Notes under the pieces: model-generated | Told to the model about the DNA's origin: nothing | The model's database searches: none | The model's input: the letters and a program-made list of their open reading frames with translations, nothing else | Made by a program: the position numbers and the translations under genes | Source of the DNA: Methanobacteriota archaeon | GTDB lineage: Archaea; Thermoplasmatota; Thermoplasmata; RBG-16-68-12; JAFNFQ01 | Direction: 5' to 3' | Assembly: GCA_017885655.1 (NCBI GenBank) | Contig: JAFNFQ010000026.1 | Span: 2,505 to 66,504 of the forward strand | DNA length: 64,000 nucleotides | Shown here: positions 19,843 to 47,063 of the stretch, piece by piece | Layout of the letters: each line of letters begins with the position of its first letter | How positions within the stretch are numbered: position 1 is the stretch's first letter

Positions 19843-19880
19843 AAACCTCTGGCTACTGAATAGCAAGGCCGGGGTTATCA

Positions 19881-20444: not shown

Positions 20445-20984
20445 CCCTCTTGCGTCGGAGATGAACCGGCGGGCTGTCTTTTTCTCAATGAATGATCAGC
20501 CATGCCTTTGCGGAAAGATGCTGCCGCAGTAGGGGCACAGCAGTGCATCTGCCGGGGCGCGGCGGCCACATGCCGGACAGGTCGCATTCTCGACATCTTT
20601 GCCGCCGTGGACGCGACAAACACAATGATGGCGAGTATCATCCCGAGGAACATTGGCATCGGATTGAATGTCGGCGGCGAATGGTTCCAGTCAAAGGCTG
20701 GGAGGATCGAGATGGCGATGATGAAGAGCATCAGGGTGAGCAGCATCGACCCCTCTTGCCTATTCATTGCGGATGAATCAGACACCTCTTGTGGATTTGG
20801 CTTTCCCAGCATGGCCCGCACCCAAAGCACAATTGAACACGACCGATGAGTAGTGTTCGCTTGGCCATCGGTAGCACGGAGATGCCCGCCCAGAGACTAG
20901 ACCCCATTCACCCCTGTCATTCTCTGGTATTCGAATTGATACGCGTAATCAAGCGTGAGAAGCAGATTTGATACGTGCAGAGGA

Positions 20985-20993
20985 GTTTATAAC
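20985..20993 (+). promoter_or_regulatory. TATA box (GTTTATAAC) for GTPase paralog 2
   Basis: 27-35 nt upstream of ATG 21020. Implies a leaderless or short-leader mRNA. Confidence 0.4.
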
Positions 20994-21019
20994 ATCACGG
21001 GACTCATTTCGTATTCTTC

Positions 21020-21583
21020 ATGCAGACTGAGACTCTTCTCACACAGAAGCATGTGAAGGCGAAGCTGTGCCTCGTCGGCGAGACCGGCGTTGGCAAGACA
21101 TCGTTGATCCGGAGGTTCGTGACGGACAGATTCGATGACAGGTACATCGCGACGGTCGGCACGAAGATCACGAAGAAAAGCGCGGATGTCTTGTGGCGTG
21201 ACGAACCGAGGACGCTCGACATGACGATCTGGGACATCATGGGCGAGAAAGGTTTTCGTACACTACTCAAGGAGGCGTACTTCCACGGTTCTCAGGGCAT
21301 CATCGCGGTCTGCGACCTCACCAGGCCGGACACGCTCTTCGACCTGAGCGGATGGGTGAACATTGCGGTCAAGCAGGTCGGAGAGGTGCCGTTCGTTTTC
21401 CTGGGGAACAAGACTGACCTGTCCAAGGAGAAGCTCGTGGACGAGGAGGATCTTGCGAAGCTGTCCGCGATCCACAAGTCCCCCTACTACCTCACGAGCG
21501 CAAAGACCGGCGAGAACATCGATCACGCGTTCAAGTCGATATCGAAGGCGATAGTCGCGGCATATTCGGACGAGACTGGCTGA
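21020..21583 (+). CDS. Ras/Rab-like small GTPase, paralog 2
   Basis: GETGVGKTS, TVGTKI, WDIMGEKG (Gln of DxxGQ replaced by Glu), NKTD, TSAKTG. 187 aa. Confidence 0.8.
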   Translation: MQTETLLTQKHVKAKLCLVGETGVGKTSLIRRFVTDRFDDRYIATVGTKITKKSADVLWRDEPRTLDMTIWDIMGEKGFRTLLKEAYFHGSQGIIAVCDLTRPDTLFDLSGWVNIAVKQVGEVPFVFLGNKTDLSKEKLVDEEDLAKLSAIHKSPYYLTSAKTGENIDHAFKSISKAIVAAYSDETG

Positions 21584-21615
21584 GGATATCACTTGAGATA
21601 ACCACGAAGTAACTG

Positions 21616-21624
21616 CTTTATAAT
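21616..21624 (+). promoter_or_regulatory. TATA box (CTTTATAAT) for GTPase paralog 3
   Basis: 23-31 nt upstream of the 21647 start. Confidence 0.4.
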
Positions 21625-21646
21625 CGCGGGAACGTGGATTTCCTCG

Positions 21647-22213
21647 ATGTCGACAGTTGGAGCGGTCACCGCAACTAAGCAGAGGATGAAGGTCAAGATC
21701 TGTCTGGTCGGAGAGGGGGCGGTGGGCAAGACCTGCCTCATCCGCCGCTTCATCCACGATCAGTTCGACGACAAGTACATCTCGACTTTGGGGGCGAAGG
21801 TCTCCAAGAAGGAGATCAGTATGCCCGACCCCAGGGGCGGGCCAGACCTCGAGATAGACATGACAGTCTGGGACATCATGGGAGAGAAAGGCTTCCGTGA
21901 GCTGCTCAAAGAAGCATATTTCCATGGAGCGCAGGGCATCCTGGCGCTGTGCGATGTCACACGCAAGGACACGCTGCTGGAGCTGCCCGAGTGGGTCAAC
22001 GCGGTGAACAAGGTTGCCGGCGCGGTCCCGATGACGCTGCTGGCAAACAAGGTCGACCTTGTCAACCAGCGCGTCATCACCGACGAGGAGATCACGAAGG
22101 TGGCCGAAAGCTACAAGGCGCCCTGGATGAAGACGAGCGCCAAGACAGGCGAGAACGTAGAGTCCGGGTTCCAGAAGCTCGCGTGGCTCATCGCGAACAA
22201 GACTCTCCAGTGA
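21647..22213 (+). CDS. Ras/Rab-like small GTPase, paralog 3
   Basis: GEGAVGKTC, TLGAKV, WDIMGEKG, NKVD, TSAKTG. 188 aa. Confidence 0.8.
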   Translation: MSTVGAVTATKQRMKVKICLVGEGAVGKTCLIRRFIHDQFDDKYISTLGAKVSKKEISMPDPRGGPDLEIDMTVWDIMGEKGFRELLKEAYFHGAQGILALCDVTRKDTLLELPEWVNAVNKVAGAVPMTLLANKVDLVNQRVITDEEITKVAESYKAPWMKTSAKTGENVESGFQKLAWLIANKTLQ

Positions 22214-30149: not shown

Positions 30150-33100
30150 TCAACCGCCCACGAACCATGTCGCGTCGGACGACAGGCACACCCAGTAGCC
30201 CTGCCCCGGCAGCATCAGGTCGTTCGGACCAAGCACCCGCAGATTGTAGTCGGGGGCAGACGGGCTAAAGCCCTCTATGCGCGAGATGGGCAATCCCGCC
30301 AACGCGTCTGCCACCCTCCTCGGCGTCATGCTGGGATAGCCGACGAGATTCCATCCCGCCTTGAGATGCACGGGGTACCCTGACGGCACGACTCCCGCCA
30401 CGGTGATTTGTGAAGGCCCCGAGCTCCCTGCCCAAAGCCCCATGCCGTTGTCCACGAAGAACAGGTCGCGATATCCCGCCGCGGTGTACTCTTTCCACGG
30501 ATCGACGGAGTCCGTTGAGTCAAAGTATCTCGCATATGTGAAGTTGAATGGACGAATCGTTGCGGTGGCCAGCACAGATGACGCGCTCGTGTTCTCGATC
30601 AGCAGCGGGAACGAGACGAGGTCGTGCCCCGTGAGATGTATCTTGTACGCACCCGCCTGATTCGACGGCGCAGATAGGCCCGCCGTGGAGTTCGCGAGTA
30701 CCTGGCAGAAGATGTTGTCCGGGCTGCGTTGGCCCATGTTCTGCAGCACCGCCCAGTCGTATCCCGGGGGCGCCACCACTACCGGGCCATAGGATGCGCC
30801 GCTCGGGTCATACACGTTTCCGCACCTCACGACATAGCCCGTCACTCTCCTGTACAGCCAGTCATCGGCGGATAGGTTCCAGGTCAGCCTGACATCCCAG
30901 AGACTGTTGCCATCCAGTTCGGCTCGGAGGTCTGAAGGCCCTCTCACCGGCACAATCGGAGCCGCCCCCGATCCTGTGAACGCCTTGACATAGATGTCCT
31001 TGTCCCCGAAGCCGTTCCTGTCGCTCTCCCAGGCGAGCCACATCGCGCCACTGGCCCCGCCACCGATGGCTACCTCCTCGTCAGCGTGCGGGTCCGTCGT
31101 CACCTGGAAGTCGGGGGACCAGCCGGTCTTGTTCCACACCTTGAGGAAGATGTCCTTGTTGCCGGTCCGATCGCTCTCCCAGGCGACATAGACGTAGCCG
31201 TTCGGGTTCGTCGCGATGGCGGGCTTGATGTCCTCTCCGATATCCGTGGTCAACTGCCTCTCAGCGGACCAAGTCGACCCGTCGTAGCTCCTGACGAAGA
31301 TGTCCTTGTTCCCGTTGCGGTCACTCTCCCACGCGACCCAAAGCGTGCCCGCGTTGTCGAACGTCACGACGGGCCTCACGTCCTGCGCGGCGTTCGTGCT
31401 GAGCCTCGTCGGCGTCGTCCATCCGGAGCCGCTGTTCGTGCTGTAGTACAGGTCGAACTGCTTGCCGGACTCCGATTCATAGAACACCCAGATGGTCCCG
31501 GTCGGAGACACCACGACTTTCGCCCCGCCCCACCACCCCTGGTTCCCAGGCCTCTTGTCTACATCCTGCTGCGCGGTCCATGTCGTGCCGTCGAACGACC
31601 GCGCGGAGATGTTCTCGTCGTTGAACGGGGTGTTGCTGATCTGCATGCCCGGCCGGAAGTACAGCGCGTAATACGTGTGCCTATACGCGGTCCAGAGCTT
31701 GCCGTCCGGCGCGAAGGCCGCAGATGGTGCACCGTCGCTCTCGTTGTGATCGACGGCGTTGGTGATTCGCTCGGGCGCATGCCAGCCGTCGTACGAGTGC
31801 ACTGCACCATAGAGGTCGTACTTCGCCGCCCAGTACCACATCGGGTGCCTCGTGGCGATGTAGTTGGCATACTCCACTTTGTTGCTCGAGAATATGAGCC
31901 ACATGTCGCCGTTCGGATCCGGAGCGAGAGTCGGCGCGCCGGTGTGCTTGTAGTTTTCGGCTATCGTCTCGACCTTTCCCCAGCTCGTCCCGTCGAAGTC
32001 GGTGGCATAGACGTCGAAGTTCTCGTACATCCCGAATGTGTGCCAGGTGAACCAGACGCGGCCATTCGTGTCGACTGCGATGTCTGGATCCATATCGTTG
32101 TGCTTGCTCTGGGAGATGAGTATCTCATCGCTCCATGTCCGCGCTTCGCGGGTGATTGTGAATTGCCTGCTCATGATGTTGTTGTCCTCGTCCAGCTCCT
32201 TGATCACTCCAGCGCGGTCAACAGCAACGAAGATGTTCTTGATTCCGACGATGCCGGCGGTGTCCCAGACGACGCTCGCGGTCTCTCTGCCTCCCGCGGC
32301 GATGGCGAGGATGACCTGCGTCAGGCCAATCTTCGTCCCGCCAGAACTCGGGTCGCCGTTGAAGAACTCAACGGGGACGTTTGCGGTGTCATTGAACCCC
32401 ACGTTCCAGATGTTGGCGGTAATCGTCACAGCCGTGTTCTCAGCAGGGTCCGTCGGGTCTGTCGTGATGTCGAGCATGTTCAATGTGAGGTCAGCATCCG
32501 CCTCCAGTTTCAGCGGATTTCTCATGACCTCCGCCAGCGATTCGTAGAGCGCCACAGAATGGTCGTAGGGCAGCTCCATGACAAGTACCTCGTGGCTTGT
32601 GATGTTCATGGAGGATACAGGCACGTGCACGTACCCGCCCGCCTCGCCGGTCTGGGTCATGTACGTGGCGCCGTACGCGTATCCGTGATACTGGGTGGTC
32701 CAATATGCCCTCCCGACGAGGATCCCGCGCGTCACATACCCGTCTTCAGAAGGTAAGAACGGATAGTAGCTCACGTTCCCTCCCGCCCAGGGATACATCT
32801 GTCCGGAGTATCTGTCCCTGTAGACGTACGTGGAGAAGTCGGGAATGTAACGGAAAATGGAGGCATTGGCTGACGGCTGCGCGACGGCGTACCAGCCGTT
32901 GAAGCCCGTCGAGTAGTTGGTGGTGACCAACTGCCCGTCGTTTCCTTGATTGTCATAGAAGAACCGGTAGGAGCCGTTCTCCAGGGGCTGCATCTCGTTC
33001 ACGTGCCGCTCATACCAGCCCCATCTGGTGTTCGTATACAGCTGCAGTGTGCCGTCGTTCATGCCCATGACGATGTCCTGGAAGCCGTCCCCGGTGAAGT

Positions 33101-34883
33101 CCCCGAACTCGGGGACGGTGTAGTCCTTGTTCCACCACACGCCACTTCCTATCGTGCCGAGCACGGAGGGCTTGAGCTGTGTGAAGCGGGGTGACGAGTT
33201 CGTCCCGGTGTTCGCGAAATAGATCAGGCTACCGAAAGTCGTGAAGTTCTGCCCCGAGACGAAGTCGAGCAACCCGTCCATCTCGACGTCCACGATCTCG
33301 GGCGTCGTGAAGTTCCCAGGCATCTTTGTCGGGCCATGGTTGAGGTAGGAGAACGTCACATCGTCCTTGACCCACGCCGGGTTGACCCTGTTGCCGTCGT
33401 TGCGATAGAAATCGAAACCACCAACGAACTTGCCCACCAGGAGGTCGAGGTCCCCGTCGGAGTCCACGTCAGCCAGTTCCGGGGCGGCGAAGAGCGGCAT
33501 GGCCATGCTGTTGACGCCCGTGAGCATCGCGTCGTCCCGCATCCAGACCGGAGAGGCGGGAGTCCCCGTGTTCCTGAAGGCGATGAGCTGCCCGCTCGCC
33601 AGACCCACGACCAGGTCCAAGTCGCCGTCGCCGTCCAGGTCCCCGAGGACCGGGGCGGTGTTGCTGTTCCAGGGCCCGCCGGGCGGAGCGAAGTTGGGCC
33701 TTGCGGTGAATATCGGATTCGATGGCCCGCCGGTGTTCTCATAGCCCGTGAGGGTACCCGCCAGCGAACCGACGATCATGTCCAGATCGCCATCGCCGTC
33801 GAGGTCGCCAGAAGATGGCGCGCTGCGGTTGCCGACGTCAAGGCCAACCAGTTTCGTCTGGTCCCATGTCCAGTTGAGCGCGGGAGTCTTCACCCATTGC
33901 CGGACGTGGTTCGGCGTCCCGTAGATGTACTCGTAGTTCCCGTCGTCAGCCATAAGCGCCGAGATCTCCATGACGAAACCGTTGTGGTTGTAGAACTTCT
34001 CGTTGACCTTCTTCGAGACGTACTCGTCGATGACGGAGCGGTTGTTGTAGACGATGACGGTTATGACGGCCCAGAGGAGGTCCGTGTCCCTTTCGAGGCT
34101 CGAGAGCATCCCGACCCCCCAGTGTATCCAGTAGGGGCTTTTGTAGACGAGATGAGTCGACACCATGACGTTGTTGCTGTCGACGACGATCGAGTCGGGG
34201 ACGCCCCATCCCAGCTGGATGCTCGGCTGGTCGGGGACGAGCAGGTCTCCCGCCACCCTCACCAGTATTCCGCTCTGTGCCTGGTAGGGGTAGGTCGTGT
34301 GGTTGTAGTAGACGCGCACGCTGTTCGTGTAGTAGAAGTCGGAGTTGTCGATCCAGATTCGGTAGTTCCTCATGTCGGTGGCGTTGCCGTCGGTGACGTA
34401 GATGTTCGGCGGATTGATGGAGAATCCCATGTCTCCAACGAGCGCCGTCCTGTTGCCGGGTTTGATGAAGTAACCCCTCTTCTCGCCCGCGTTGAAGCTG
34501 TCCTGGAAGGCAATCCTCATCCTGTGAACATACCCGCTGGGATAGAGCTCCACTGTGGAGTTCAACGGTCCCGACAGGACCTCGCTGTCATCGGTCTGCC
34601 GCCGCACCGAGAAGTTCGTCGAATCGGTGATCATAGAGTCGGGCAGGGTGAGGTTCATCTGGATGACTTCATCCGGCCTGTTGACTGCAATCGTGTTGGT
34701 GACGTTCAGCGCAACCGCCAATGGCGAGGCCATCGGGCGTGGCGACTCGCTGCCCGCCTCGCTCCCGCCATGCAAGTACGCCGGCATGAAAAGCATCGTC
34801 GCGACAATCGCAGCGCCAAGAACCTTCGTCAGCCGTGCGGTTGGAGAATCCGACAAGTGACCCCGACCCCTTGGGGGAGTCAA
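30150..34883 (-). CDS. giant secreted/surface protein (1577 aa) with FG-GAP/VCBS and PD40-like beta-propeller repeats
   Basis: N-terminal signal peptide. Repeated GDLDGDGDLD (FG-GAP/VCBS Ca-binding), repeated W(E)SDRNGNKDIF (PD40/TolB-like), many N-x-S/T sequons. No C-terminal TM. Confidence 0.85.
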   Translation of the reverse strand: MTPPRGRGHLSDSPTARLTKVLGAAIVATMLFMPAYLHGGSEAGSESPRPMASPLAVALNVTNTIAVNRPDEVIQMNLTLPDSMITDSTNFSVRRQTDDSEVLSGPLNSTVELYPSGYVHRMRIAFQDSFNAGEKRGYFIKPGNRTALVGDMGFSINPPNIYVTDGNATDMRNYRIWIDNSDFYYTNSVRVYYNHTTYPYQAQSGILVRVAGDLLVPDQPSIQLGWGVPDSIVVDSNNVMVSTHLVYKSPYWIHWGVGMLSSLERDTDLLWAVITVIVYNNRSVIDEYVSKKVNEKFYNHNGFVMEISALMADDGNYEYIYGTPNHVRQWVKTPALNWTWDQTKLVGLDVGNRSAPSSGDLDGDGDLDMIVGSLAGTLTGYENTGGPSNPIFTARPNFAPPGGPWNSNTAPVLGDLDGDGDLDLVVGLASGQLIAFRNTGTPASPVWMRDDAMLTGVNSMAMPLFAAPELADVDSDGDLDLLVGKFVGGFDFYRNDGNRVNPAWVKDDVTFSYLNHGPTKMPGNFTTPEIVDVEMDGLLDFVSGQNFTTFGSLIYFANTGTNSSPRFTQLKPSVLGTIGSGVWWNKDYTVPEFGDFTGDGFQDIVMGMNDGTLQLYTNTRWGWYERHVNEMQPLENGSYRFFYDNQGNDGQLVTTNYSTGFNGWYAVAQPSANASIFRYIPDFSTYVYRDRYSGQMYPWAGGNVSYYPFLPSEDGYVTRGILVGRAYWTTQYHGYAYGATYMTQTGEAGGYVHVPVSSMNITSHEVLVMELPYDHSVALYESLAEVMRNPLKLEADADLTLNMLDITTDPTDPAENTAVTITANIWNVGFNDTANVPVEFFNGDPSSGGTKIGLTQVILAIAAGGRETASVVWDTAGIVGIKNIFVAVDRAGVIKELDEDNNIMSRQFTITREARTWSDEILISQSKHNDMDPDIAVDTNGRVWFTWHTFGMYENFDVYATDFDGTSWGKVETIAENYKHTGAPTLAPDPNGDMWLIFSSNKVEYANYIATRHPMWYWAAKYDLYGAVHSYDGWHAPERITNAVDHNESDGAPSAAFAPDGKLWTAYRHTYYALYFRPGMQISNTPFNDENISARSFDGTTWTAQQDVDKRPGNQGWWGGAKVVVSPTGTIWVFYESESGKQFDLYYSTNSGSGWTTPTRLSTNAAQDVRPVVTFDNAGTLWVAWESDRNGNKDIFVRSYDGSTWSAERQLTTDIGEDIKPAIATNPNGYVYVAWESDRTGNKDIFLKVWNKTGWSPDFQVTTDPHADEEVAIGGGASGAMWLAWESDRNGFGDKDIYVKAFTGSGAAPIVPVRGPSDLRAELDGNSLWDVRLTWNLSADDWLYRRVTGYVVRCGNVYDPSGASYGPVVVAPPGYDWAVLQNMGQRSPDNIFCQVLANSTAGLSAPSNQAGAYKIHLTGHDLVSFPLLIENTSASSVLATATIRPFNFTYARYFDSTDSVDPWKEYTAAGYRDLFFVDNGMGLWAGSSGPSQITVAGVVPSGYPVHLKAGWNLVGYPSMTPRRVADALAGLPISRIEGFSPSAPDYNLRVLGPNDLMLPGQGYWVCLSSDATWFVGG

Positions 34884-34964
34884 GCCGCAGGGCCAACATC
34901 AAACTTTCGACGGCGCGAACCATACATGATGCCGGCGTCGCCGTGGAGTCGGGTTACCCTTCGA

Positions 34965-35520
34965 GATAGACTTCTCCTACGCCCAGACCGGGTCTTCCCG
35001 CACGGTTATGGGACTTGTCTACATCCGCGTCGATGCTATCCGATTCCACGCCGATCTAACGAGGACGGTTGCGGACCTCCCCCCGACCGTTCCTGAGTCC
35101 TCCTCGATTCTGACGAACCCCGCCTCGATCGTTGCGGAATCGCCCTCGATCCGGGTGGACCCTGCCTCGGTGTAGGAAGACCTCTCCTACGCGTAGGAAT
35201 TGTCCTCCTACAGCGGGACGGACATTTCCTACATCCGAATGGAACTCTCCTACGTGTAGGAGGACTCCATCCGGGTCGTCTACACCCCATCAGACCGGGG
35301 ACAGGTTTCTCCTACGTGTAGGAGGACCTTGCCCGAACATAGGAGGCTCCCTCCTGCGTGTAGGAACATGTCTCCTACGTGTAGGAGGACTCCGTCCAGA
35401 CGCGATTCGGGCCGTCAGCATGGTTTAGACCCTGGTCAGAGTGAGAACGACCTTCTCCTACGTGTAGGAGGACTCCTCCTCGGTGTAGGAGGACCTCGCC
35501 TACATGTAGGAAGATTCCGT
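34965..35520. repeat. array of >=12 copies/half-sites of an imperfect palindromic motif CTCCTAC-N3-GTAGGAG(GAC)
   Basis: Seen directly. Full copies at ~35183-35200, 35245-35266, 35307-35328, 35350-35366, 35372-35393, 35455-35476, 35477-35494, 35498-35518, plus half-sites. Lies between the stop of the 35680 gene and the start of the 34883 gene. Confidence 0.7.
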
Positions 35521-35679
35521 CCCGGAGGTCCTCCCCATAGAAACGGTCGAGGAGCAGGCCGTGGCGGCATGGCTGGAAAATATCCACGGCGGGAAATCCC
35601 CGATTCCCGAACGATGGCGGAAAAGCCTCACGATTCGCCTCGAGATGACGATGCTCGACATCCCAGTCGCTCGCGATGC

Positions 35680-38600
35680 TCATCCACCGAGCAGCCAAGT
35701 TGCGTCCGAGGAGACGTAAATCCAGTATCCGCGGCCTGGGGACATCATGTCGTCGCCGCCCAGGACTTTGAGGTTGTAAGGAGGAGCGGCAGGGTCTTCT
35801 CCCTCGATTCGCACGACAGGCAGGCCCGCCAGCGCGTCCGACACTGTCCGTGGAGTGAGGCTGGAATAGCCGACTAGATTCCAGCCCGCCTTCAACATGA
35901 TCGTGTATCCATTCGGCACCGTCCCCGTCACCGTGAGCTGACCTGGCCCAGAACTGCCGATCCACAATCCCATGTCGTTGCCTATTCCCACTGAATCGCG
36001 GGGGCCGATCATCGAGAATATCTTCCAAGGGCTCACCGCGTCGAGTTCATCGTAGTATCGCATGTATGTGAAGTTGGATGGTATGTTCGTGAGAGTCGCG
36101 AGCACGGACGTAACAGCAGGATCCTCGATGAGCAACGGGATCGAGATGAGGTTGTGCCCGGTCAGCGCGATTTTGTACGCACCCTGCTGGTTGGAAGGCG
36201 CGGTCGAAGCAAAGGGCGTGTGCGCGATCACATAGCAGAAGACATTCCTCGGGTCGCCCTGTCCGCGGCCAGCCAAGGTCAGCGACCTCACGCTGGCGGG
36301 TGTGTCTGCGACATTGACGTAGCCGACTCCGCTTCTATCATAGACATCCCCGCACATGACCGTGTATCCGTTCACAAGATTGGTCGACCAGTCGTGCACG
36401 GGGTAGCTCCAGGTCAACTTCACGTCCTCGTAGAGGGCTCCGGACAGCTCCGCCTTCAACGTAGGAGGCGGCAACTGCAGGACCTTGGCGATTATGTCCT
36501 TGTCGCCGTAGCCATTCCTGTCAGACTCCCAGACGAGCATCGCGCCCCCTGAGCCGGTCCCCGCGATCTTGACCTGCTCATCGGAGCGGGCATCTTTTGT
36601 AACCTGCAGGTCCGGCGTCCAGGCGGCGCCGTCGAAGACTTTCAGGAAGATGTCCTTATTCCCGGTCCTGTCGCTCTCCCATGCCATGAGGACGTTTCCC
36701 GTGCCGTCCGTGGAGATCGCGGGCTTCATATCCTCGCCAGGTTCGGTCGTGAGCCTGATGTCGTTCGACCACGATGTGCCGTTGAGGTATTTCACGTACA
36801 GGTCCTTCTCGCCGTCCCTGTCGCTCTCCCAAACGACGATAAGGCTTCCGCGCGAGTCGAAGGTCGCGACGGGCCTGACGTCTTGCCCGGGGTTGTTCGT
36901 CAACCTCGCGGGCGCACTCCATCCAGATCCGTTATTCTTGCTGTAGTAGATCTCGAACTGCGTCTGGCTGAGCTCGGATTCGTAGAACGCCCAGATCGTG
37001 CCGGACGGCGACACCGTCAGGTAGGCACCGCCCCACCAGCCTTGGTTTCCCGCTCGGTTGTCGACTACCTGCTCGCCGCTCCAGGAGGTCCCGTTGAACG
37101 ACCTGGCGGAGATGTTCATGTCCTGATAGGGGATGTTGTACATCTGCTGCCCATGGGAGTAGAGGTCGAAGTGCGTGTGCCTGAACGCCGTCCAAAGCGT
37201 GCCGTCTTGGGCGACCGCCACTCGCGGCGCCTGGTCGGCGTTGTCCTTCTCGACCGCCTGGGAGAAACGATACGGGGCCTGCCAGCCGCCTGACGAGTGG
37301 TTCAGGGCCCACAGGTCGAACTTCTGGCTCCAGTAATAAATGCCGTTCTTCGTCGTGATGAACTTGTCATACTCGACGATATTGCTGGAGAAGATCAGCT
37401 GTACGTCCCCGTTAGGCATTGCGGCGAGGGCGGGCGCGCTCGTCCGCTTCATTCCCGATGTGAGCTGCTGGACGCCAGACATTGTATTCCCATCATAGAC
37501 CCTTGCGAACATGTCGAAGTCATCCTTTCTGACGAAAGTGTGCCACGCCACCCAGATGTCGCCGTTGGCATCGGTCACGAGGTCGGGATCCATGTCGTTG
37601 TATGTTGACTCCGAGAGTATCCAATCCCCGCTCCATGCCCTCCGCGTGGCTGTGATTTGAAACGTCCTGCTAGCGACGTTGTTGTCTTCGTCGGTCTCCG
37701 CTACCGTGTTCCCCCGATCCACCGCCACGAAGATCGTCCTCGCCCCACTTATGCCCACTGTGCTCCAGAGGGCGCTCGCACTGTAGACGCTCCCGGCCGG
37801 AATCGACGGGATCACGTAAGTCGTGTCAATCTTCGTGCCACCAGCCGACGGATCGCCATCGAAGAACTCCACCTGGACGTTGCTCGCGGTCTTGAACCCG
37901 GTGTTCCACACGTTGGCGAGAACCCAGACATCCTGTCCCTGCCCGGGGTCCGATGGATCGGTCGTGATGTCGATGGGGCGGAGCGTGAGATCGGGATCGC
38001 TGTCCAGAATCAACGGGTTCTTCATCTTCGCGGCGATCGAATCATAGAGCGCGGCGGAATGGTCGTACGGCAGCTCCAGCACCAGGGTCTCCCTGCTCCT
38101 GTGGTCCATGGCGGTCATCGGGACCTGCAGGAACCCGCCCGCCGTCCCGGTCTGCGAGAGGTACGTTCCGCCGTATCCGTAGCCGCCTGCGGTCGCATCG
38201 GTGGCGGCGCGGGTGACTAGCATCCCCCTCCCGATCCGCCCGTCCTCTCCCGGGATGAACGGGTAGTAGCTCGTGTTCCCGCCGGCCCACGGATACATCT
38301 CGCCTGAATATTCGTCCCTGTACGCGTACCTCGCGAAGTCGGGCACGTAGCGGAATATCGAAGCGTTGGCGGAAGGGTTGGAGACGACGTACCATCCGTA
38401 GAAGTCGCTGGAGTAATTCCTGATCACATATTGCCCGTCGTTGCCGTCCTGGTCATAGTAATACCTGTACGAACCGTTCTGCAGGGGCTGCATCGTGTTC
38501 GCGTGTCTCTCGGGCAGAGAGTATCCCTGGTTCGCATAGAACTCCAGGGTCCCGTTGTTGATGCCGATCGCTATGTCCTCGAGCCCGTCGCCGTTCAGGT

Positions 38601-40356
38601 CGCCGAATTCCGGCGCACTGTAGTCGGCGTCATAGTACCCCGGCCCGCGGACGTTGTTGAACATGGCGGGGTAGAGCTTGGTGAATCTCGGCTCCGAGTT
38701 GTTGCCCTCGTTCTGGAAGTAGACGAGGGTGCCGAAGCTCGTGTAGTTCGTGCCTGAGACGAAGTCAACATTTCCGTCACGGTTGACATCGGCGATTGCG
38801 GGAGTGCAGTAGTAGCCTAGTTTCAGTGTGTTGCCATGGTTCAGATAGCTGAAGGTCAGGTCGTCCAACGAGAATTGTGGGAATGCCGCCGTGCCGACAT
38901 TCTTGTAATAATGGAAAATGCCGCTGGCGAACCCGATGAGGAGGTCCAATGTCCCGTCTCCATTGAGGCCCGCCAGCTCTGGCGCAGCTTCCTGGACATT
39001 GGCGGCGGCAAGCACGCCCGTCAGTAGGGTATCATCTCGGGTCCATGCGGGCATGAAGGCGTTTCCAGTGTTCCTGAACGCAATCAGGCTCCCGTTTTGG
39101 AGGCCGACCACCAGGTCCAGATCCCCGTCTCCATCGAGGTCGCCAAGGGTGGGCTTGGTGTTTGCATCCCAAGGCCCGCCGGTCGGCGTGAGGTTCAAAT
39201 CGCGTGTGAATGCGGGATTCGTCGGACCGCCCGTGTTGTTGAACCCGGTCAAGTTCCCGTCCGCCGAGCCCACGATCAGATCGAGGTCCCCGTCGCTGTC
39301 CAGGTCTCCCAGCGCGGGGGCGCTCCGGTTCCCAACTTCCACCTCCCGGAACTCATGCCAGTCGAGCGCCCAGTTGAGGGACGTGGTGTTTGCCCATTGC
39401 CTCGTGTGGTCAGGCGTCCCAAAGATGTACTCGTAATTGCCGTCCCCCGCCAGGAGAAGCGACGTCTCCATGAGGAAGCCGTTGTGGTTGTAGAACTTCT
39501 CGTTGACCTTCTTCGAGACATAAGCGTCAATCATCGAGTTGTTGTTGTAGAAGTTGACGGTGAGGTCCGCCCAGATGACGTCAGTGTCCTTCAACCAGGA
39601 CGAAGTCGCACCGTAGCCCCATTGAGCTGAATACGGGCTGTGGTAGGAAAGATGGACCGAGACCATGGCGCTGTTCACATCCGCCACGAGAGAGTCCGGT
39701 GTCCCCCATCCCATCTGGAAGTTCGTCTGGTCCAGCGAGAGCTGGTCCCCGCCGACCCGGACGAGTATCCCGCTCTGCGCTTCGTATGGATATGTGGTGT
39801 GATCGTAGTACACCCTGATGCCGGTGGTATAGTAGTTGATGGAGTTGTCCGTGGTTAGCATGTACGTCCTTCTGTCCGTCACATTCCCATCGGTGACGGT
39901 CACAGCCGTGAACCCGATGCTGCAAGTCATGTCCCCCTTGAGGGCGGTCTTCTCACCCGCATTTATGAAGTAGCCCTTCCTCTCGCCCGGCGCGAAACTG
40001 TCTTGGAAAGCAATCCGCATCCTGTGGATGTAGCCGCTCGGGTACAGTTCAACGGTAGAGTTCAGGGGACCGGACAGGACTTCGCTGCCATCGGATTGGC
40101 GGCGTACTGTGAAATGGGTGGAATCTGTGATTGTTGAATCCGGCAGAGTCAAGTTCATCTGGATGACCTCATCGGGCCGGTCGATCGTCAGGGTGTTGGT
40201 TACATTCAGGGCGAACACGGACGAGGAGGCTGCGGGCATCGGGAGAGTACCGCCAGAATCCCCGCCAGAGCGCATGGACACGGGGATCAGGAAAAGAGAT
40301 GCGATCGCGACGGCGCAGACAATCTCTGATACTCGGGAGAACGAAGAGCGGTGCAT
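35680..40356 (-). CDS. giant secreted/surface protein (1558 aa), paralog of the 30150..34883 gene
   Basis: Collinear similarity to the downstream gene from N-terminus (NVTNT…NRPDEVIQMNLTLPDS…LSGPLNSTVELYPSGY) to C-terminus (GYW…SSDATW…GG). Same FG-GAP and PD40-like repeats. Confidence 0.85.
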   Translation of the reverse strand: MHRSSFSRVSEIVCAVAIASLFLIPVSMRSGGDSGGTLPMPAASSSVFALNVTNTLTIDRPDEVIQMNLTLPDSTITDSTHFTVRRQSDGSEVLSGPLNSTVELYPSGYIHRMRIAFQDSFAPGERKGYFINAGEKTALKGDMTCSIGFTAVTVTDGNVTDRRTYMLTTDNSINYYTTGIRVYYDHTTYPYEAQSGILVRVGGDQLSLDQTNFQMGWGTPDSLVADVNSAMVSVHLSYHSPYSAQWGYGATSSWLKDTDVIWADLTVNFYNNNSMIDAYVSKKVNEKFYNHNGFLMETSLLLAGDGNYEYIFGTPDHTRQWANTTSLNWALDWHEFREVEVGNRSAPALGDLDSDGDLDLIVGSADGNLTGFNNTGGPTNPAFTRDLNLTPTGGPWDANTKPTLGDLDGDGDLDLVVGLQNGSLIAFRNTGNAFMPAWTRDDTLLTGVLAAANVQEAAPELAGLNGDGTLDLLIGFASGIFHYYKNVGTAAFPQFSLDDLTFSYLNHGNTLKLGYYCTPAIADVNRDGNVDFVSGTNYTSFGTLVYFQNEGNNSEPRFTKLYPAMFNNVRGPGYYDADYSAPEFGDLNGDGLEDIAIGINNGTLEFYANQGYSLPERHANTMQPLQNGSYRYYYDQDGNDGQYVIRNYSSDFYGWYVVSNPSANASIFRYVPDFARYAYRDEYSGEMYPWAGGNTSYYPFIPGEDGRIGRGMLVTRAATDATAGGYGYGGTYLSQTGTAGGFLQVPMTAMDHRSRETLVLELPYDHSAALYDSIAAKMKNPLILDSDPDLTLRPIDITTDPSDPGQGQDVWVLANVWNTGFKTASNVQVEFFDGDPSAGGTKIDTTYVIPSIPAGSVYSASALWSTVGISGARTIFVAVDRGNTVAETDEDNNVASRTFQITATRRAWSGDWILSESTYNDMDPDLVTDANGDIWVAWHTFVRKDDFDMFARVYDGNTMSGVQQLTSGMKRTSAPALAAMPNGDVQLIFSSNIVEYDKFITTKNGIYYWSQKFDLWALNHSSGGWQAPYRFSQAVEKDNADQAPRVAVAQDGTLWTAFRHTHFDLYSHGQQMYNIPYQDMNISARSFNGTSWSGEQVVDNRAGNQGWWGGAYLTVSPSGTIWAFYESELSQTQFEIYYSKNNGSGWSAPARLTNNPGQDVRPVATFDSRGSLIVVWESDRDGEKDLYVKYLNGTSWSNDIRLTTEPGEDMKPAISTDGTGNVLMAWESDRTGNKDIFLKVFDGAAWTPDLQVTKDARSDEQVKIAGTGSGGAMLVWESDRNGYGDKDIIAKVLQLPPPTLKAELSGALYEDVKLTWSYPVHDWSTNLVNGYTVMCGDVYDRSGVGYVNVADTPASVRSLTLAGRGQGDPRNVFCYVIAHTPFASTAPSNQQGAYKIALTGHNLISIPLLIEDPAVTSVLATLTNIPSNFTYMRYYDELDAVSPWKIFSMIGPRDSVGIGNDMGLWIGSSGPGQLTVTGTVPNGYTIMLKAGWNLVGYSSLTPRTVSDALAGLPVVRIEGEDPAAPPYNLKVLGGDDMMSPGRGYWIYVSSDATWLLGG

Positions 40357-40399: not shown

Positions 40400-41326
40400 T
40401 TAAGCTTTCGAAGGCGGGAGAGAGCTCAGCGAAGCCGTCACCTCCGCCCTCGAGCGATAGACTCTGTCGTCGAGCTGCTTCAACAGCACAGAGGCCCGAA
40501 CACGCTTGCTGTCCGCAAGATCGACGAGTTTCCAGCCTTGGTGGCGTATCAGCTCATCCCTGGAAGACGGGAACTTTGCATCCTCCTTGAGAACCTCGTC
40601 GAGCGATGCGAGGCCCTCGCCTTTCGTCACCTTCGGGAATATTCCCGTCCTCTTGAACGCGGCGAACCGGGCGGCATCCTTGTACATCTTCACTCCGTGG
40701 AATGCGAACACGGCGAAGTCGAACCCGCCCCTGGATGTCCGGTCGTCTGCGTCCTCCAGCTCCTCGTCGGTCGGCTGGTAGATGTTATGCTCGCCCTTCC
40801 CGAAGATGCGCAGATACGCCTGGTCGGACGGCACCCTCGGATCCTGCAAGATGGGATCGACAACGTCGATGGCATGAATGTCGCTCATCGTCTTGGCAAG
40901 CTTTAGCGGGAGATCCCGACCACTGTAGGCTCTTGCCTCGATACATACCGTCGCACGCAGATCGACTGAAGAGACGAGATTCACGATGGCGGTGCAGGAG
41001 GAATCGTCGAATTTCCGCCATGGCGGGTACTCGAGCACGAGCCAAGGGGCTTTGAGGCGGTCGCAGATGGCGGCGGCCCGACCTAGGTGCTCTCTCGCCT
41101 CGGGATCGTCTAGTCTCCCGCCATCGTGAGTGATTCGGCGGGGAGCCTTGACTGAGAACTTGAATGTCGATGGAACGGTTTGCCGCCAACGGGCCACGTC
41201 CCTTGCTTCGGGAAGGCGATAGAACGTATTATTCGCCTCGACGAACTGAAATGCCCGCGCATAGGTGCGGAGGCCGCCGGAGAAGTAGCCCCACCCGCCG
41301 GCGCCGATGAAGGCCTCGCCGCTCAT
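40400..41326 (-). CDS. DUF72 (UPF0759) family protein
   Basis: Internal Met MSGEAFIGAGGWGYFSGG… (IGTSGWSY-like motif); …FQFVEANNTFYRLP. Confidence 0.7.
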   Translation of the reverse strand: MSGEAFIGAGGWGYFSGGLRTYARAFQFVEANNTFYRLPEARDVARWRQTVPSTFKFSVKAPRRITHDGGRLDDPEAREHLGRAAAICDRLKAPWLVLEYPPWRKFDDSSCTAIVNLVSSVDLRATVCIEARAYSGRDLPLKLAKTMSDIHAIDVVDPILQDPRVPSDQAYLRIFGKGEHNIYQPTDEELEDADDRTSRGGFDFAVFAFHGVKMYKDAARFAAFKRTGIFPKVTKGEGLASLDEVLKEDAKFPSSRDELIRHQGWKLVDLADSKRVRASVLLKQLDDRVYRSRAEVTASLSSLPPSKA

Positions 41327-41555
41327 CGGGCATGAAAGATGGCGGGAGTGGTATAAGAGCTGCGGGATGAGGGGGATGAAAGTGACGGCGGCATCGTCCA
41401 TTCAATCTGGAAAAGGTGGACACATTTCGGGAAAACGCGCTCGAACCTTGGGAGCATGCACCCGAGTCAGCGCATCTTCAGCACTTACAGCGAGAAGTTG
41501 AAAGGAGGGAAGATAGTCACTCGGCCTGGGCCTGATGCTGGTGGTATTCCCAATC

Positions 41556-43248: not shown

Positions 43249-44448
43249 ATGCCCTCGCCCGTGAAGAAGTACCGCTTCGGTTGCTCCGGCTGGTCCTACG
43301 ACGAATGGATCGGCCCCTTCTACCGCTCCGAGTCCGAGAGCAAGCTGGAGGCCTACTCAAGGGTCTTCGACACCGTCGAGATCAACAGCACCTTCTACCG
43401 CCCCCCTGAGACAGGGATGGTCTACGGCTGGGCGAGGAACAGCCCCGAGGGGTTCGTCTTCGCCGCCAAGGTCCCCCAGACTGTCACTCACGACAAGCTG
43501 CTTGACGTGGAGAAGGGCGCCGCCACGGAGCTTGCGAACTACTGCGAACTGATGAGGCCCCTCCGCGACGCTGAGAAGCTCGGTCCGTTACTGCTGCAGC
43601 TCCCGCCACGCCTGCGGTTCGAGGCGAAGCACATCGACGCCTTCCTGAGCACCCTGCCTGACAGGTACCTGTTCGCCTTGGAGCCGAGGAACAAGTCGTG
43701 GATGGTCCCAGAGGCTTTCGACCTCCTCAGGAAGCACAATGTCGCGTACACGGTCGTGGACGAGCCCCTGCTCCCGGGCGATGTCCACGTCACCGCGGAT
43801 TTCTCGTACTTCCGCTGGCACGGGCACGGCGACCAGCCCTGGTACGACTACAGGTACAGCCTCGGCGAGCTCAAGGAGTGGGTCCCCAAGGTCGAGGACG
43901 CCGCCTCGAAGTCTGAGACGGTCTACGGATTCTTCAACAACCATTTCCACGGATACGCGCCGGAGAACTGCATCCAGATCCTCGAGATGCTCGGCGGCAT
44001 CGGGCCGGAGCAGCAGAAGGCGATGAAGCGAATCGAGGAGTTCAGGCACAGTTTCGCCATCGAGCGGCGGGGGTCGGGAAGAGGCGTGACCCTGGAGGAC
44101 TTCTCCGAGACACCGATTGCAGACCCGGAGCTTGACCCCATCCTTTCCAAGTTCCTCGGCAGTGCGAGACTGGACAGGGCGAAGCGGATTGCATCGACCG
44201 AGGTGAGCATCAACGACGAGGGGACCTCGATAGCGGCGAAGGTGAAAGACTACAGGATTACCCTCGACCTCTCAGCCAAGAGGATCGAGCACGACTGCGA
44301 CGACTGGGCGAAACGGATCGCGGGGAAGGAATTCTGCAAGCACGTCGGCAAGTTCTTCATAATGCTCCCGAGGGCGAGGGCTCTATCAATCCTGGAAGAG
44401 ATGAGGAAGGCCCTCGACGCGTGGACATTCGCCGTCAGAGAGGGCTAG
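43249..44448 (+). CDS. DUF72 (UPF0759) family protein with ~150-aa C-terminal extension; paralog of the 40400..41326 gene
   Basis: MPSPVKKYRFGCSGWSYDEWIGPFY…VFDTVEINSTFYRPP; 399 aa. Confidence 0.75.
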   Translation: MPSPVKKYRFGCSGWSYDEWIGPFYRSESESKLEAYSRVFDTVEINSTFYRPPETGMVYGWARNSPEGFVFAAKVPQTVTHDKLLDVEKGAATELANYCELMRPLRDAEKLGPLLLQLPPRLRFEAKHIDAFLSTLPDRYLFALEPRNKSWMVPEAFDLLRKHNVAYTVVDEPLLPGDVHVTADFSYFRWHGHGDQPWYDYRYSLGELKEWVPKVEDAASKSETVYGFFNNHFHGYAPENCIQILEMLGGIGPEQQKAMKRIEEFRHSFAIERRGSGRGVTLEDFSETPIADPELDPILSKFLGSARLDRAKRIASTEVSINDEGTSIAAKVKDYRITLDLSAKRIEHDCDDWAKRIAGKEFCKHVGKFFIMLPRARALSILEEMRKALDAWTFAVREG

Positions 44449-45194
44449 TACATCACCGAGCCGCCATTGACGAGCAACGTTGTCCCGGTTATCCAGTCCG
44501 AATCCTTCGACGCAAGGAAGCTGACCACTGCCGCGATGTCCTCCGGCTTTCCGATCCGCCTCAATGGAATCTCGCGAGCACGCTGCCTCTTCTTCTCCGG
44601 AGTATCTCCCGCCAGGATGTCTGTGTCGACGGGCCCGGGGGCAATCGCGTTGACCGTGACATTGTACCTCGCGAGCTCCTGAGCCGCCGCCTTCGTGAAG
44701 CCGAGGATGCCGGCCTTTGATGCTGCGTACTCGGAACCGTGGTCTGTGCCCTTGATGGCGATCTGGCTGGAGATGTTGATGATGCGACCCCAGCCCGCCC
44801 TCTTCAGATATGGCATGGCTGCCTTGGTGCAATAGAAGACGCTGCTGAGGTTCGTGGCGACCCTCCTGTCCCATTCTTCCGGGGTCAGCTTGTCGAGGAC
44901 AGTCCGCTCGTAGATGCCCGCATTGTTGACGAGGACGTCGATCCTGCCGAACGACCTGACCGCCGTCTCGATGAGGCGTCTCGCCTCTCGCCACCTCGAG
45001 ACGTCCGCCTTGACGGAGATCGCTTTGCGACCACTTGCCTCGATTGCGTCGACGACTTGTGCTGCCTGCTTGTTGCTCCGTACGTAGTTGACGACGACAT
45101 CGAAGCAATCGGCGGCAAGGCGAAGCGCCGTTGCTTTGCCGATTCCGCGCGAACTGCCCGTGATGAGCGCAATACCCGGCATCGATACCACCAA
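44445..45194 (-). CDS. SDR-family oxidoreductase (3-oxoacyl-ACP reductase-like)
   Basis: TGSSRGIGKA Rossmann motif, NNAG, catalytic Y-x3-K (YAASKAG), PGPVDTD. Confidence 0.85.
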   Translation of the reverse strand: MVVSMPGIALITGSSRGIGKATALRLAADCFDVVVNYVRSNKQAAQVVDAIEASGRKAISVKADVSRWREARRLIETAVRSFGRIDVLVNNAGIYERTVLDKLTPEEWDRRVATNLSSVFYCTKAAMPYLKRAGWGRIINISSQIAIKGTDHGSEYAASKAGILGFTKAAAQELARYNVTVNAIAPGPVDTDILAGDTPEKKRQRAREIPLRRIGKPEDIAAVVSFLASKDSDWITGTTLLVNGGSVMY

Positions 45195-45414
45195 TGAGAC
45201 AAACCCGCCGCGGCATTTAACGATGATGAGGGCGGGACGGATGCTCTAGCTTTCAGCACATTCGAGCAATGCAGGATTCTCTTCAGTATCTGCGGGGGCG
45301 GGCATCCTCGTGGCTGGGAGCTTCCAGGCAGTGGCGTACCGCATTCGCAACCGCGGTCATCCACGCCTGAACAACAGCGACCACCGCTTGATCCGCGCCG
45401 GTTCTCCTCCATAT

Positions 45415-45990
45415 GGCACCGCATTCTCCCGCATCGGAATCGAATCAGTCCGCATTTCCCCGAGCTTCGGGCGCGTTTTCCGGGCATCCGTCCGCGTTTT
45501 CCCCGACCTCGGGCGCATTGTCCCAGGCTTGTGGCGCATTCTCCGCGATTCCCTCCGCATCTTCCCCGGCTGTGTCCGCGTTCTCGTATATACGTAACAT
45601 TGCTCCCGGACTCGCTCCGCGTTTTCCCGGGACAGAGGCGCATGCGCCCAGACCTCGGGCGCATTTTCCGAAGAGCGGTCCGCATTTTCCCGAGCACGCT
45701 CCGCATGCGCCGGAAGTCCATTCGCATTTTCCCCGACACCGTCCGCATTTTTTCCGGTTATCGATGACTCTCCTCGCATCCGCCAAGATGCTCCGACGAT
45801 CGGTTCCGGTTTTCCGCGAGGAGGTCCGCATTTTCCCGGGCTCCGTCCGCATTGTCCGAGACGCCGTCTAAGTCTCTTCAAATCACTGACAGTCTTCTTC
45901 GCAACCGCTCGGATGCCATGATACTCGATTCAGATTCTCTGAAGGATTGTCCACGTTTTCCCGGATGCCCTCCGCGTTTTCCCGCCGACG
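45415..45990. repeat. degenerate tandem repeat array, ~20 copies of a 13-17 bp core (G)TCCGCATTTTCCC(G) with ~21-30 bp periodicity
   Basis: Seen directly (for example 45449-45461, 45490-45505, 45614-45630, 45678-45692, 45721-45735, 45741-45756, 45825-45840, 45846-45858, 45950-45963, 45971-45986). Occupies most of a ~900-bp intergenic space upstream of the SDR gene. ORFs across it encode repetitive GKMR/HFP strings on both strands (artifact). Confidence 0.7.
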
Positions 45991-46118: not shown

Positions 46119-47063
46119 TCACGATTCTCCGGTGAACTGTTGTATCACTCTTGCTTTCTTTCGGGGAGTCTGATAACCGAGACCGCTTCTGGAGAAGACC
46201 TTGACAATCGACGCCGAACACTTAGGACAAATCCTTGCGCCAGTCTCAGCGCGCACCTTCGGCATGTAGGAGCAACGCGTGCAATATTCCGTCCGTATGA
46301 AACCGAAAATCATGTTCAGATAAACCGTCGAGGTTCCATACGCAGGCATTTCCCGGTATCTCGGTGCGAACACGCCCGGGGGACTGAGAGAAAGCCCAAT
46401 TGCCTCACGGAAGCTATCGAACATCCGCTTCAACCTCTCCGCCTCCAGGCTCGCCAGTTCTTTCGATTCTGGAATCAGAGCGCGAAGATCCAGTCTTTTG
46501 AAGACCCAATTCGTGAAGAGCCCCTCATATGGAGATTCCCAGATGTCTCTCCGAAAGGAGAATTTCTCCAAGGGATGCAGGGCTGAGACATCGGCGTAGA
46601 AGTACTGGCCGTTGACAAATATGTCGTCAGGGCGCTTCCACGGAGTGTGAGCGAGAATCTGGGGAGGTCTAGGATCCAGCTCGATTGCGATGGGGATTTG
46701 CTGCCCGTCGACAGGGAGGAACCCTTTGGCGACGGGATGGAATGCGAAGCCGGACTTGCACAAGACCTGGGAAATCGCGATAGAATCATCCGACAAGAGA
46801 AAACGTTTGAACGTCACGTATCTGACGAGCTGTTGTCTCGTCTTGCGTATCATCCCTCCTGCAAGGGCAGCGCTGAATGCGAATGTGGTGCCGAAAAAGG
46901 AAGCAAGGAGGGCTCCATCTATGGCCGGATACATCATGGCACCAAGCATCACAGTTGCAGCTGCTGCGGCGGCGAGGATCCATACGAGAATCCGATAGAG
47001 CGAGAAGAGTCGCTCGCCCTCACTCCCAACTTCCTCGAGCCAATCCTCCAATACTGGCGGCAA
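46119..47063 (-). CDS. hypothetical membrane protein with C-terminal zinc-ribbon (CxxC…CxxC)
   Basis: N-terminal 2 TM (VWILAAAAAATVMLGAMMYPAIDGALLASFFG…). C-terminal CTRCSYMPKVRAETGARICPKCS. Confidence 0.5.
   Translation of the reverse strand: MPPVLEDWLEEVGSEGERLFSLYRILVWILAAAAAATVMLGAMMYPAIDGALLASFFGTTFAFSAALAGGMIRKTRQQLVRYVTFKRFLLSDDSIAISQVLCKSGFAFHPVAKGFLPVDGQQIPIAIELDPRPPQILAHTPWKRPDDIFVNGQYFYADVSALHPLEKFSFRRDIWESPYEGLFTNWVFKRLDLRALIPESKELASLEAERLKRMFDSFREAIGLSLSPPGVFAPRYREMPAYGTSTVYLNMIFGFIRTEYCTRCSYMPKVRAETGARICPKCSASIVKVFSRSGLGYQTPRKKARVIQQFTGES

Follow-up and report, generated by a model that had tools for sequence, protein, structure and literature searches.

An interspersed, satellite-like family of non-coding 21-bp palindrome arrays in Thermoplasmatota archaea, possibly a landing pad for a DNA-binding protein

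Interspersed non-coding repeats are well studied in bacteria, as in the palindromic REP/BIME clusters, MIRU and BOX, but they have hardly been described in archaea. Arrays of short repeats and palindromes are also known as binding platforms for proteins: sopC of the F plasmid consists of 12 repeats of 43 bp, sopC and chromosomal parS carry 16-bp palindromes to which a dimeric helix-turn-helix protein binds cooperatively, and plasmid iterons are phased direct repeats of 17-22 bp. In the GTAG super-family of REP sequences the terminal GTAG lies outside the base-paired part (PMC3733652). Dispersed non-coding satellites are rare in prokaryotes according to a survey of 261 genomes, which found them in two species only, Leptospira interrogans and Methanocella conradii, the latter with family Fam_27_37_5 (PMC6749651). 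The SegB sites of archaea, TCTAGA-S-TCTAGA, are single and mostly intragenic (bioRxiv 10.1101/2025.02.07.637068). Here we analyse a palindrome array in a 64,000-nucleotide stretch of an uncultured Thermoplasmatota archaeon (contig JAFNFQ010000026.1; the whole stretch is called the window), where it lies between two paralogous genes for giant surface-type proteins of the FG-GAP kind, gene A (35680-40356) and gene B (30150-34883), both on the minus strand. The reading that we favour, held with about as much belief as doubt, is that this array belongs to a lineage-specific, interspersed, non-coding, satellite-like family which acts as a landing pad for a protein at the DNA level. Judged from its distribution among relatives, the array is not a private switch or dedicated operator of the two paralogs.

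Allowing up to two mismatches, CTCCTACNNGTAGGAG is found eight times within 35184-35512 and once more, in an unrelated place at 49059, in the whole window, where shuffled sequence gives 0.15 expected matches and none of 100 shuffles reached the observed count. The palindrome cluster noticed in an earlier sequence-only reading of this DNA is therefore real and far beyond chance. TCCTAC half-sites number 17 in 34975-35511 (33 in the whole window, against 16 expected), the count in the array being 21 when seven-mer half-sites may carry one mismatch, and the 20-mer TCTCCTACGTGTAGGAGGAC occurs there four times exactly. That reading had separated the two arms by three nucleotides and had described the spacing of the copies as irregular, and both points have to be corrected. 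The core is CTCCTAC-GT-GTAGGAG, a 7-2-7 palindrome with a spacer of two nucleotides, followed by GAC, and a single 21-bp register, which slips by 1 nt at two places, near 35290 and 35420, holds 20 of the 21 half-sites. Tandem Repeats Finder (TRF) likewise gives a period of 21, and self-identity at lag 21 is 0.44-0.50 in the array against a background of 0.26-0.29. Since 21 bp correspond to two helical turns, all half-sites would lie on one face of the helix.

In this register, 34975-35562 resolves into about 28 units of a degenerate tandem array, each a full palindrome, a single half-site, or decayed beyond recognition; the same stretch is what copies at other loci have in common (blastn, nhmmer). 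An array is thus present where some 550 bp had been proposed for it, but it is longer than that, and it sits in a still larger variable block (34921-35677). The decayed units form the left part (34975-35160; C.CCCTCGAT-type sequence without an intact palindrome, recognised from the register layout and from repeat families D3 and D5 with 42- and 63-bp spacing) and, further inside, stretches of 42 and 63 bp; the palindrome-free stretch of 63 bp (35392-35454, three decayed units) holds one of the 1-nt slips and keeps its position in all group-1 copies. The motif scan places CTCCTACGCGTAGGAA at 35184-35199, the perfect-arm palindrome CTCCTACGTGTAGGAG(GAC) at 35247-35262, further palindromes with perfect arms at 35309-35324 and 35372-35387, the imperfect CTCCTGCGTGTAGGAA at 35351-35366 and, at 35455-35512, three units at exact 21-bp spacing (a perfect palindrome, CTCCTCGGTGTAGGAG and CGCCTACATGTAGGAA), which TRF also detects. 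Units have a polarity, with a conserved GAC after the right arm and a right arm that is better conserved than the left, and the edges of the array are more decayed than its centre. The GC content of the block is ~0.59, and the block contains no AT-rich unwinding element. CRISPR, with its repeats of 23-50 bp and unique spacers of similar length, had been set aside by the sequence-only reading and is rejected here as well, as one unit follows the next head to tail and what look like spacers are decayed units, conserved between copies.

The array is not confined to this locus. An exact 18-mer scan of Joint Genome Institute (JGI) metagenomes returned 16 loci (designated by L numbers), three of which (L006, L009 and L015) were discarded as chance single matches in unrelated, differently composed DNA; the remaining 13 bear arrays with the same 21-bp spacing pattern as in the window. 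L002, L010 and L011 represent the orthologous locus, with both giant genes at 81-91% nucleotide identity. At non-orthologous loci a module of ~0.5 kb recurs, with 65-92% identity among copies and 73-91% to that of the window (blastn, nhmmer), between flanks that are unrelated to those of the window at both the DNA and the protein level, and at least seven unrelated intergenic contexts have been found for it. It lies between divergent orc1/cdc6 and a gene for a major facilitator superfamily (MFS) transporter, with the array 250 bp upstream of orc1/cdc6 (L004/L005); directly upstream of a CARDB giant gene (L003/L007); with the 3' end of a PKD giant gene on one side and a gene for acetyl-CoA hydrolase on the other (L012/L014); after an fn3 giant gene (L016) and an SBBP/PKD giant gene (L008); near an open reading frame (ORF) resembling HicA (L017); and, in L013, on a contig of 1 kb that gives no gene context. 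Its position is upstream of genes, downstream of them or between convergent ones, with no consistent relation to promoters. Among the compared loci no gene always accompanies the array, and the small ORFs that flank the arrays have no Pfam or PHROG matches.

The copies are homologous over their full length, palindrome-free stretches and both 1-nt slips included, which implies that the copied entity is the array and not the unit. The extent of shared sequence to the left and right differs from one pair of copies to the next, so there are no fixed termini. The copies of L003 and L012 share one 250-kb contig, and the window holds one array of this family (family 1) in its 64 kb; neither there nor at the loci of more distant relatives are there other family-1 copies. 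In the GTDB representative genomes the exact 18-mer has no match, and a search for three GTAGGA at 21-bp spacing found at least 120 unrelated bacterial loci, none of them with the palindrome; viral contigs and plasmid and phage collections also gave no match to the array. The sequence-only reading had named hundreds of occurrences of the motif through the genome in random contexts as a finding that would speak against it. Such dispersal is now seen in kind, in the various contexts, with more than one copy per genome observed on a single contig only.

Close relatives differ in whether they have the array at all. L149, at the start of a 159-kb contig, has a gene A and a gene B that are 84% and 90% identical to those of the window, and its homology with the window covers 40423-35678 and 34920-30124. 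In L149 these two segments are no more than 13-16 nt apart, so that the block at 34921-35677 (~757 bp), which comprises everything between the stop of gene A and the promoter of gene B, is missing. L149 and L011 are sister strains (p-distances 0.049 and 0.064), the window and L002 standing outside that pair. Because L011, the window and L002 all carry the array, a loss of ~750 bp (34921-35677) in L149 appears to be the simplest history. With the paralogs ~15 nt apart and the gene B promoter intact, the ~757-bp block is dispensable in that strain; the more distant relatives L148 and L150 also have no array at this locus. No clear target-site duplication is seen at the empty-site junctions of L149, and for this reason, together with the lack of fixed termini among copies, a miniature inverted-repeat transposable element (MITE) or other non-autonomous transposon was rejected.

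Length changes follow the units. L011 is without 208 bp, exactly what separates the identical units at 35247 and 35455, and the other indels among copies are of 21 or 63 bp; this shows that identical units recombine and that the array thereby changes its length by whole units, the 35247 and 35455 copies being the partners in L011. Turnover is also seen at the orc1 locus. L144, the closest relative there (Orc1 90% identical), has 142 bp between the MFS gene and orc1 and represents an empty site, while the same segment holds the array in L004/L005, a gene for a DUF6159 membrane protein in L018, L019, L023 and L145, and two tiny ORFs within an AT-rich stretch in L021 (compared coordinates: L005 5670-6636, L018 8724-9957, L144 1273-1503). 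In every case homology sets in again ~44 bp upstream of orc1, with a TTTAAA box directly after that point. To judge from these comparisons, intergenic DNA gains and loses the array as a block, and can do without it.

Two known kinds of element behave most like this family: the REP/BIME clusters of bacteria (PMC3733652) and the dispersed non-coding satellites that are seen, rarely, in prokaryotes (PMC6749651). Like REP/BIME, the family consists of short imperfect palindromes in tandem clusters that are intergenic, often just after coding regions, dispersed, and variable in unit number between strains; the imperfect palindromes of REP/BIME are 20-40 bp long, extragenic and clustered, and number tens to thousands per genome, and those found here are of 16-19 bp, with eight full copies plus half-sites, always intergenic. 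GTAG/CTAC at the start or end of the unit is a further likeness, although here the tetranucleotide is paired, on the inner side of the arms. The differences are that the present family is archaeal, that its 21-bp units keep a strict helical register, and that whole arrays of ~0.5 kb with a fixed layout are copied; no gene for RAYT, the Y1 transposase whose gene is flanked by REPs, was seen in the window or at any retrieved locus. With the satellite families surveyed in PMC6749651 it shares a non-coding tandem array that recurs at several unlinked loci, but those have units of >30 nt, with perfect repeats in M. conradii, whereas the units here are of 21 bp, palindromic and degenerate, with constraint on the half-sites. 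We file the element with the interspersed non-coding repeat arrays, as an archaeal variant.

Much of this would also be expected of a selfish or neutral interspersed satellite that spreads and is deleted by recombination without any host function, and whose conservation results from recent spread and gene conversion. This is the main rival to a protein landing pad, and a serious one, though we think it somewhat unlikely. It would account for presence and absence among close relatives, with a clean loss in L149 that left the flanking genes undamaged, for changes in unit number among copies, for neighbouring genes that bear no fixed relation to the array, for paralogous copies (85-92% identity) that are as alike as orthologous ones, for edges that have decayed more than centres, and for the existence of several unrelated 21-bp array families in the clade. 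It is less able to explain the rates of change. Aligned with its counterpart in L002, the array of the window is 90.2% identical and free of indels; for third codon positions of the two flanking genes, identity is 77% and 65%. In this comparison the whole array is thus shown to evolve more slowly than the synonymous sites of its neighbours. Half-site columns diverge 3-5 times more slowly than the others (Fisher p 0.02 to 6e-8; these core columns were defined on a third sequence, and the comparisons are not fully independent), and the slowdown in the cores is still 3.5-fold between the orthologous copies of the window and L002, which share their insertion by descent. Conversion among copies should not reduce the divergence between orthologs, and the conserved helical register calls for an explanation.

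For the landing pad, by contrast with a satellite that has no host function, it is the combination of features that argues: a conserved palindrome with its tail, a period of two turns, a phase that is kept because indels come only in whole units, an absence of evidence for RNA or coding function, and the lack of a promoter point together to a binding array at the DNA level. On our reading the ancestral unit carries CTCCTAC-GT-GTAGGAG followed by GAC, each copy of the family is a degenerate tandem array of ~0.5 kb, and many copies of a putative sequence-specific, probably dimeric, DNA-binding protein would coat this ~0.5 kb cooperatively, as in nucleoprotein arrays of the sopC/parS, iteron or BIME type. 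The effect would be local, in that adjacent transcription units are separated or insulated, or the chromosome is organised, and new copies would come from ectopic recombination or the copying of segments, not from a transposase acting on fixed ends. Several points weigh against this proposal. Across the compared loci, no gene that could encode a regulator goes along with the array, the binder is putative, and in L149 the array is dispensable at this very locus. The other 21-bp arrays of the clade have quite different motifs, which implies that the period may reflect how arrays are generated and not one binding protein. The slower change of the cores could in part be the result of homogenisation among units or of copies that are not independent. 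Finally, all related sequences are metagenomic, and co-occurring copies are known from one contig only.

In the architecture of its sites, as distinct from its behaviour, the array is closest to palindrome arrays of the sopC/parS type and to iterons. The likeness to sopC/parS lies in 7-2-7 palindromes at integral helical turns, the cooperative binding of a dimer being only proposed here; the differences are that no parA/parB-type genes are found nearby (among ~50 window ORFs scanned against Pfam), that there are many dispersed arrays, and that the host is an archaeon and the sequence unrelated. Like iterons the units run head to tail at about two turns, in phase, with a polarity (here the GAC tail) and in variable number, but the array is chromosomal, has no rep gene and no AT-rich region, and exists in many dispersed copies. 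SegB sites are similar in that palindromes are scattered over an archaeal chromosome and are bound by a small dimeric protein, again only proposed in our case, and they differ in sequence and in having no tandem arrays.

The folding of the array on the level of RNA has to be considered separately. Both strands fold far better than shuffled sequences (z = -7.4 and -5.8), as any array of palindromes must. An RNA-level element would be made by read-through from gene A or as part of the leader of gene B, and its hairpins would protect 3' ends, cause pausing or termination, or titrate an RNA-binding protein. Such an element would suit the strong folding, the GGAGG/CCUCC contained in the motif, the position of the array directly after the 3' end of a giant gene in four contexts, and the excess of C.A cells (G.U on minus-strand RNA) over G.T cells, 32 against 15. 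We nevertheless hold it to be improbable. In 56 arm pairs from 8 palindromes and 11 copies there is no genuine compensatory change; palindromes with imperfect arms keep their mismatches in all copies, and half-sites without a partner are preserved too. A TATA-like promoter is missing from the module itself, the array points either way relative to the upstream gene (two cases each), and two nucleotides are too few for the loop of a 7-bp stem as the motif is written. Rfam and tRNA searches of the array gave nothing at the gathering threshold or at E<=1.

Coding function fares no better, which agrees with the sequence-only reading, where the region was taken to be non-coding. No conserved ORF crosses the array, no frame is open through the whole of it, and substitutions between copies lack 3-periodicity in all six comparisons. 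A small ORF at the right edge (MxLDRFYGEDLRDG...) was dropped as a candidate, since it has a CTG start in the window and its frame is lost in L012. The idea of a decayed protein-coding heptad repeat (7 amino acids = 21 nt), left as a pseudogene fragment, draws on a period that is a multiple of three and on frames that are open for ~100 codons, and we find it barely credible: two 1-nt register slips are conserved, every unit has a TAG stop in one frame per strand, and neither the substitution pattern nor the right-edge ORF, which is not conserved, behaves as coding sequence would.

The sequence-only reading had placed the array correctly, upstream of the start of gene B and downstream of the stop of its paralog, and had taken it for a multi-operator array of a dimeric regulator or for a site of phase or recombination control of the two genes. 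Gene B encodes a 1577-aa and gene A a 1558-aa FG-GAP/CARDB surface-type protein (Pfam; ~57% identical to each other), gene B having a TTG start at 34883. Its probable promoter, the BRE/TATA-like CGAAAGTTTGATG (34883-34912 with the TTG start, minus strand), is assigned by analogy with the TTTAAA/TATATTAT boxes ~25 nt upstream of orc1 and the MFS gene in L005. A dedicated switch for gene B and its paralog would fit with an array that lies 10-650 bp upstream of the presumed TATA box, with strains that differ in array length, and with the many copies that adjoin surface-protein genes. We regard it as distinctly improbable, however, as the module has also been found at acetyl-CoA hydrolase, MFS and orc1 genes and in the gaps of convergent gene pairs, and as L149 retains both genes and CGAAAGTTTGATG...TTG before gene B though its array is absent. 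No recombinase or regulator gene is found near the array, either among the Pfam-scanned ORFs of the window or in the comparison of flanks. The promoter-like element of gene B is outside the block and survives without it, so the array is not specific to the paralogs. What survives of the operator proposal is its first half: an array of binding sites is the most plausible reading, because half-site columns change more slowly and the sites are helically phased, but its dedication to these paralogs is not supported, and a phase or recombination switch does not agree with the unrelated contexts or with the array-less L149, L148 and L150.

Archaeal origins adjoin an initiator gene, orc1/cdc6 or whiP, and have an AT-rich DNA unwinding element (DUE) between inverted origin recognition boxes (ORBs). 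Known ORB dyads are of the TCCA-N-TGGA type, and the motif described here is unlike them. A replication origin or its remnant, in the form of an ORB-like array bound by Orc1/Cdc6, would make sense of the array upstream of divergent orc1/cdc6 in L004/L005 and of a unit that combines a dyad with an asymmetric G-rich extension, as ORBs have been described (preprint 10.64898/2026.08.15.744077). It seems very improbable to us, because a DUE is lacking, the window has no initiator gene and the array is not conserved beside orc1 in relatives, and an archaeal oriC/ORB array was accordingly rejected. The gene orc1 is near the array in one of at least seven contexts, that of L004/L005, and the Orc1 protein of L005 has no match in the window (tblastn). 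Relatives with an Orc1 that is 83-90% identical have the DUF6159 gene or an empty site in place of the array. In the L005 intergenic region GC is 0.50-0.70 throughout, with no AT-rich unwinding element. The units share one polarity, and inverted ORBs on either side of a DUE are absent.

Family 1 may not stand alone. Strong autocorrelation at lag 21 is found in two regions of the window only, 34975-35562 and 45277-45990. The latter is a second non-coding array, unrelated to the first, with a 21-bp period, a 42-bp super-period and the core CCGCATTTTCCC; its unit core is (G/T)CCGCATT(T/G)TCCC, with CCCGAG-C-CTCGGG palindromes, and its plus strand is pyrimidine-rich. It lies between two genes of the same strand, the 3' end of 46119-47063 (minus) and the start of an SDR gene at 44445-45194 (minus). 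Intergenic 21-bp arrays with other motifs are seen in relatives at L150 8428-8870, L023 10879-11214, L145 11509-11760 and L017 5503-5922, in gaps that are short in their hosts' own relatives; at the fibrillarin locus, for example, the gap is 0.9-1.6 kb as against 84-91 bp in L018 and L021. The arrays of L017, L145 and L023 are homologous to each other (67-70%) though they lie at different loci, and are likewise non-coding, with no 3-periodicity of substitutions. In the window together with the sequence retrieved by protein queries, and not by the motif, 21-bp arrays occur about once per 60 kb. None of the models tried explains why unrelated motifs share a period of 21 bp. Intrinsic curvature was discarded as a common trait, since neither array of the window is among the most curved 1% (wedge model).

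As a tentative and rather doubtful generalisation, these may be members of an undescribed class of archaeal chromosomal elements, non-coding arrays of ~0.5-0.9 kb with a 21-bp period, which would comprise unrelated families, lie between transcription units about once per 60 kb, be gained and lost as blocks, and serve as landing pads for a filament-forming protein with an insulating or organising role or else be a new kind of mobile satellite with a copying mechanism of its own. At least two such families in one uncultured archaeal lineage, both with a strict two-turn period, are of interest in their own right, and the family studied here joins constraint on half-sites with turnover among close relatives. 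Should there be a cognate protein, the arrays would be a handle on chromosome organisation and gene insulation in a phylum that has no genetic system. In the annotation of metagenome-assembled genomes they give rise to stretches of ~0.8 kb without called genes, and to spurious ORFs, and they are natural strain markers of the variable-number tandem repeat (VNTR) type.

The window is a piece of archaeal chromosome, with a ribosomal-protein operon that includes L32e and S4e, and with SecY, geranylgeranyl reductase (GGR), FEN1 and AspRS; the Orc1/Cdc6 homologs of related contigs carry Thermoplasmata or Thermoplasmatota names in public records. The Pfam scan of ~50 window ORFs found no ParA/ParB, Orc1, transposase, integrase or mobile-element families. 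Within the variable block, 35563-35677 (115 bp, from the array to the stop of gene A) is a locus-specific flank that is 96.6% identical to L002 and absent from the paralogous copies. It is also ~95-98% identical to L011, far above the flanking coding DNA, and contains short inverted repeats, T-runs and a possible minus-strand ORF of 53 codons. The neighbouring 3' part of gene A (35800-36500) is 62-78% identical to L002 but 74-98% identical to L011, a mosaic which, with adjacent intergenic DNA that is 96% identical, suggests recombination or diversifying change in the surface protein.

Elsewhere in the window, three tandem paralogous ORFs of ~190-200 aa adjoin AspRS at 19860-22210 (plus strand); a related ORF is present in L004, and by synteny with L148 the three probably correspond to three genes for small GTPases of the Arf/Ras/Roc type. 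A 944-aa protein encoded at 48222-51056 (minus strand) has a C-terminal KaiC-like ATPase domain and long N-terminal repeats rich in Glu, Lys and Leu, which resemble a coiled coil and give strong GC and AT skew. A cluster of half-site-like words at 49017-49095 lies in this coiled-coil coding region and was dismissed as chance. Finally, two divergent DUF72 paralogs, at 40400-41401 (minus) and 43249-44448 (plus), are separated by 1.85 kb with intervening ORFs that have no family matches, and in the distant relative L150 the equivalent gap is occupied by a 21-bp array.

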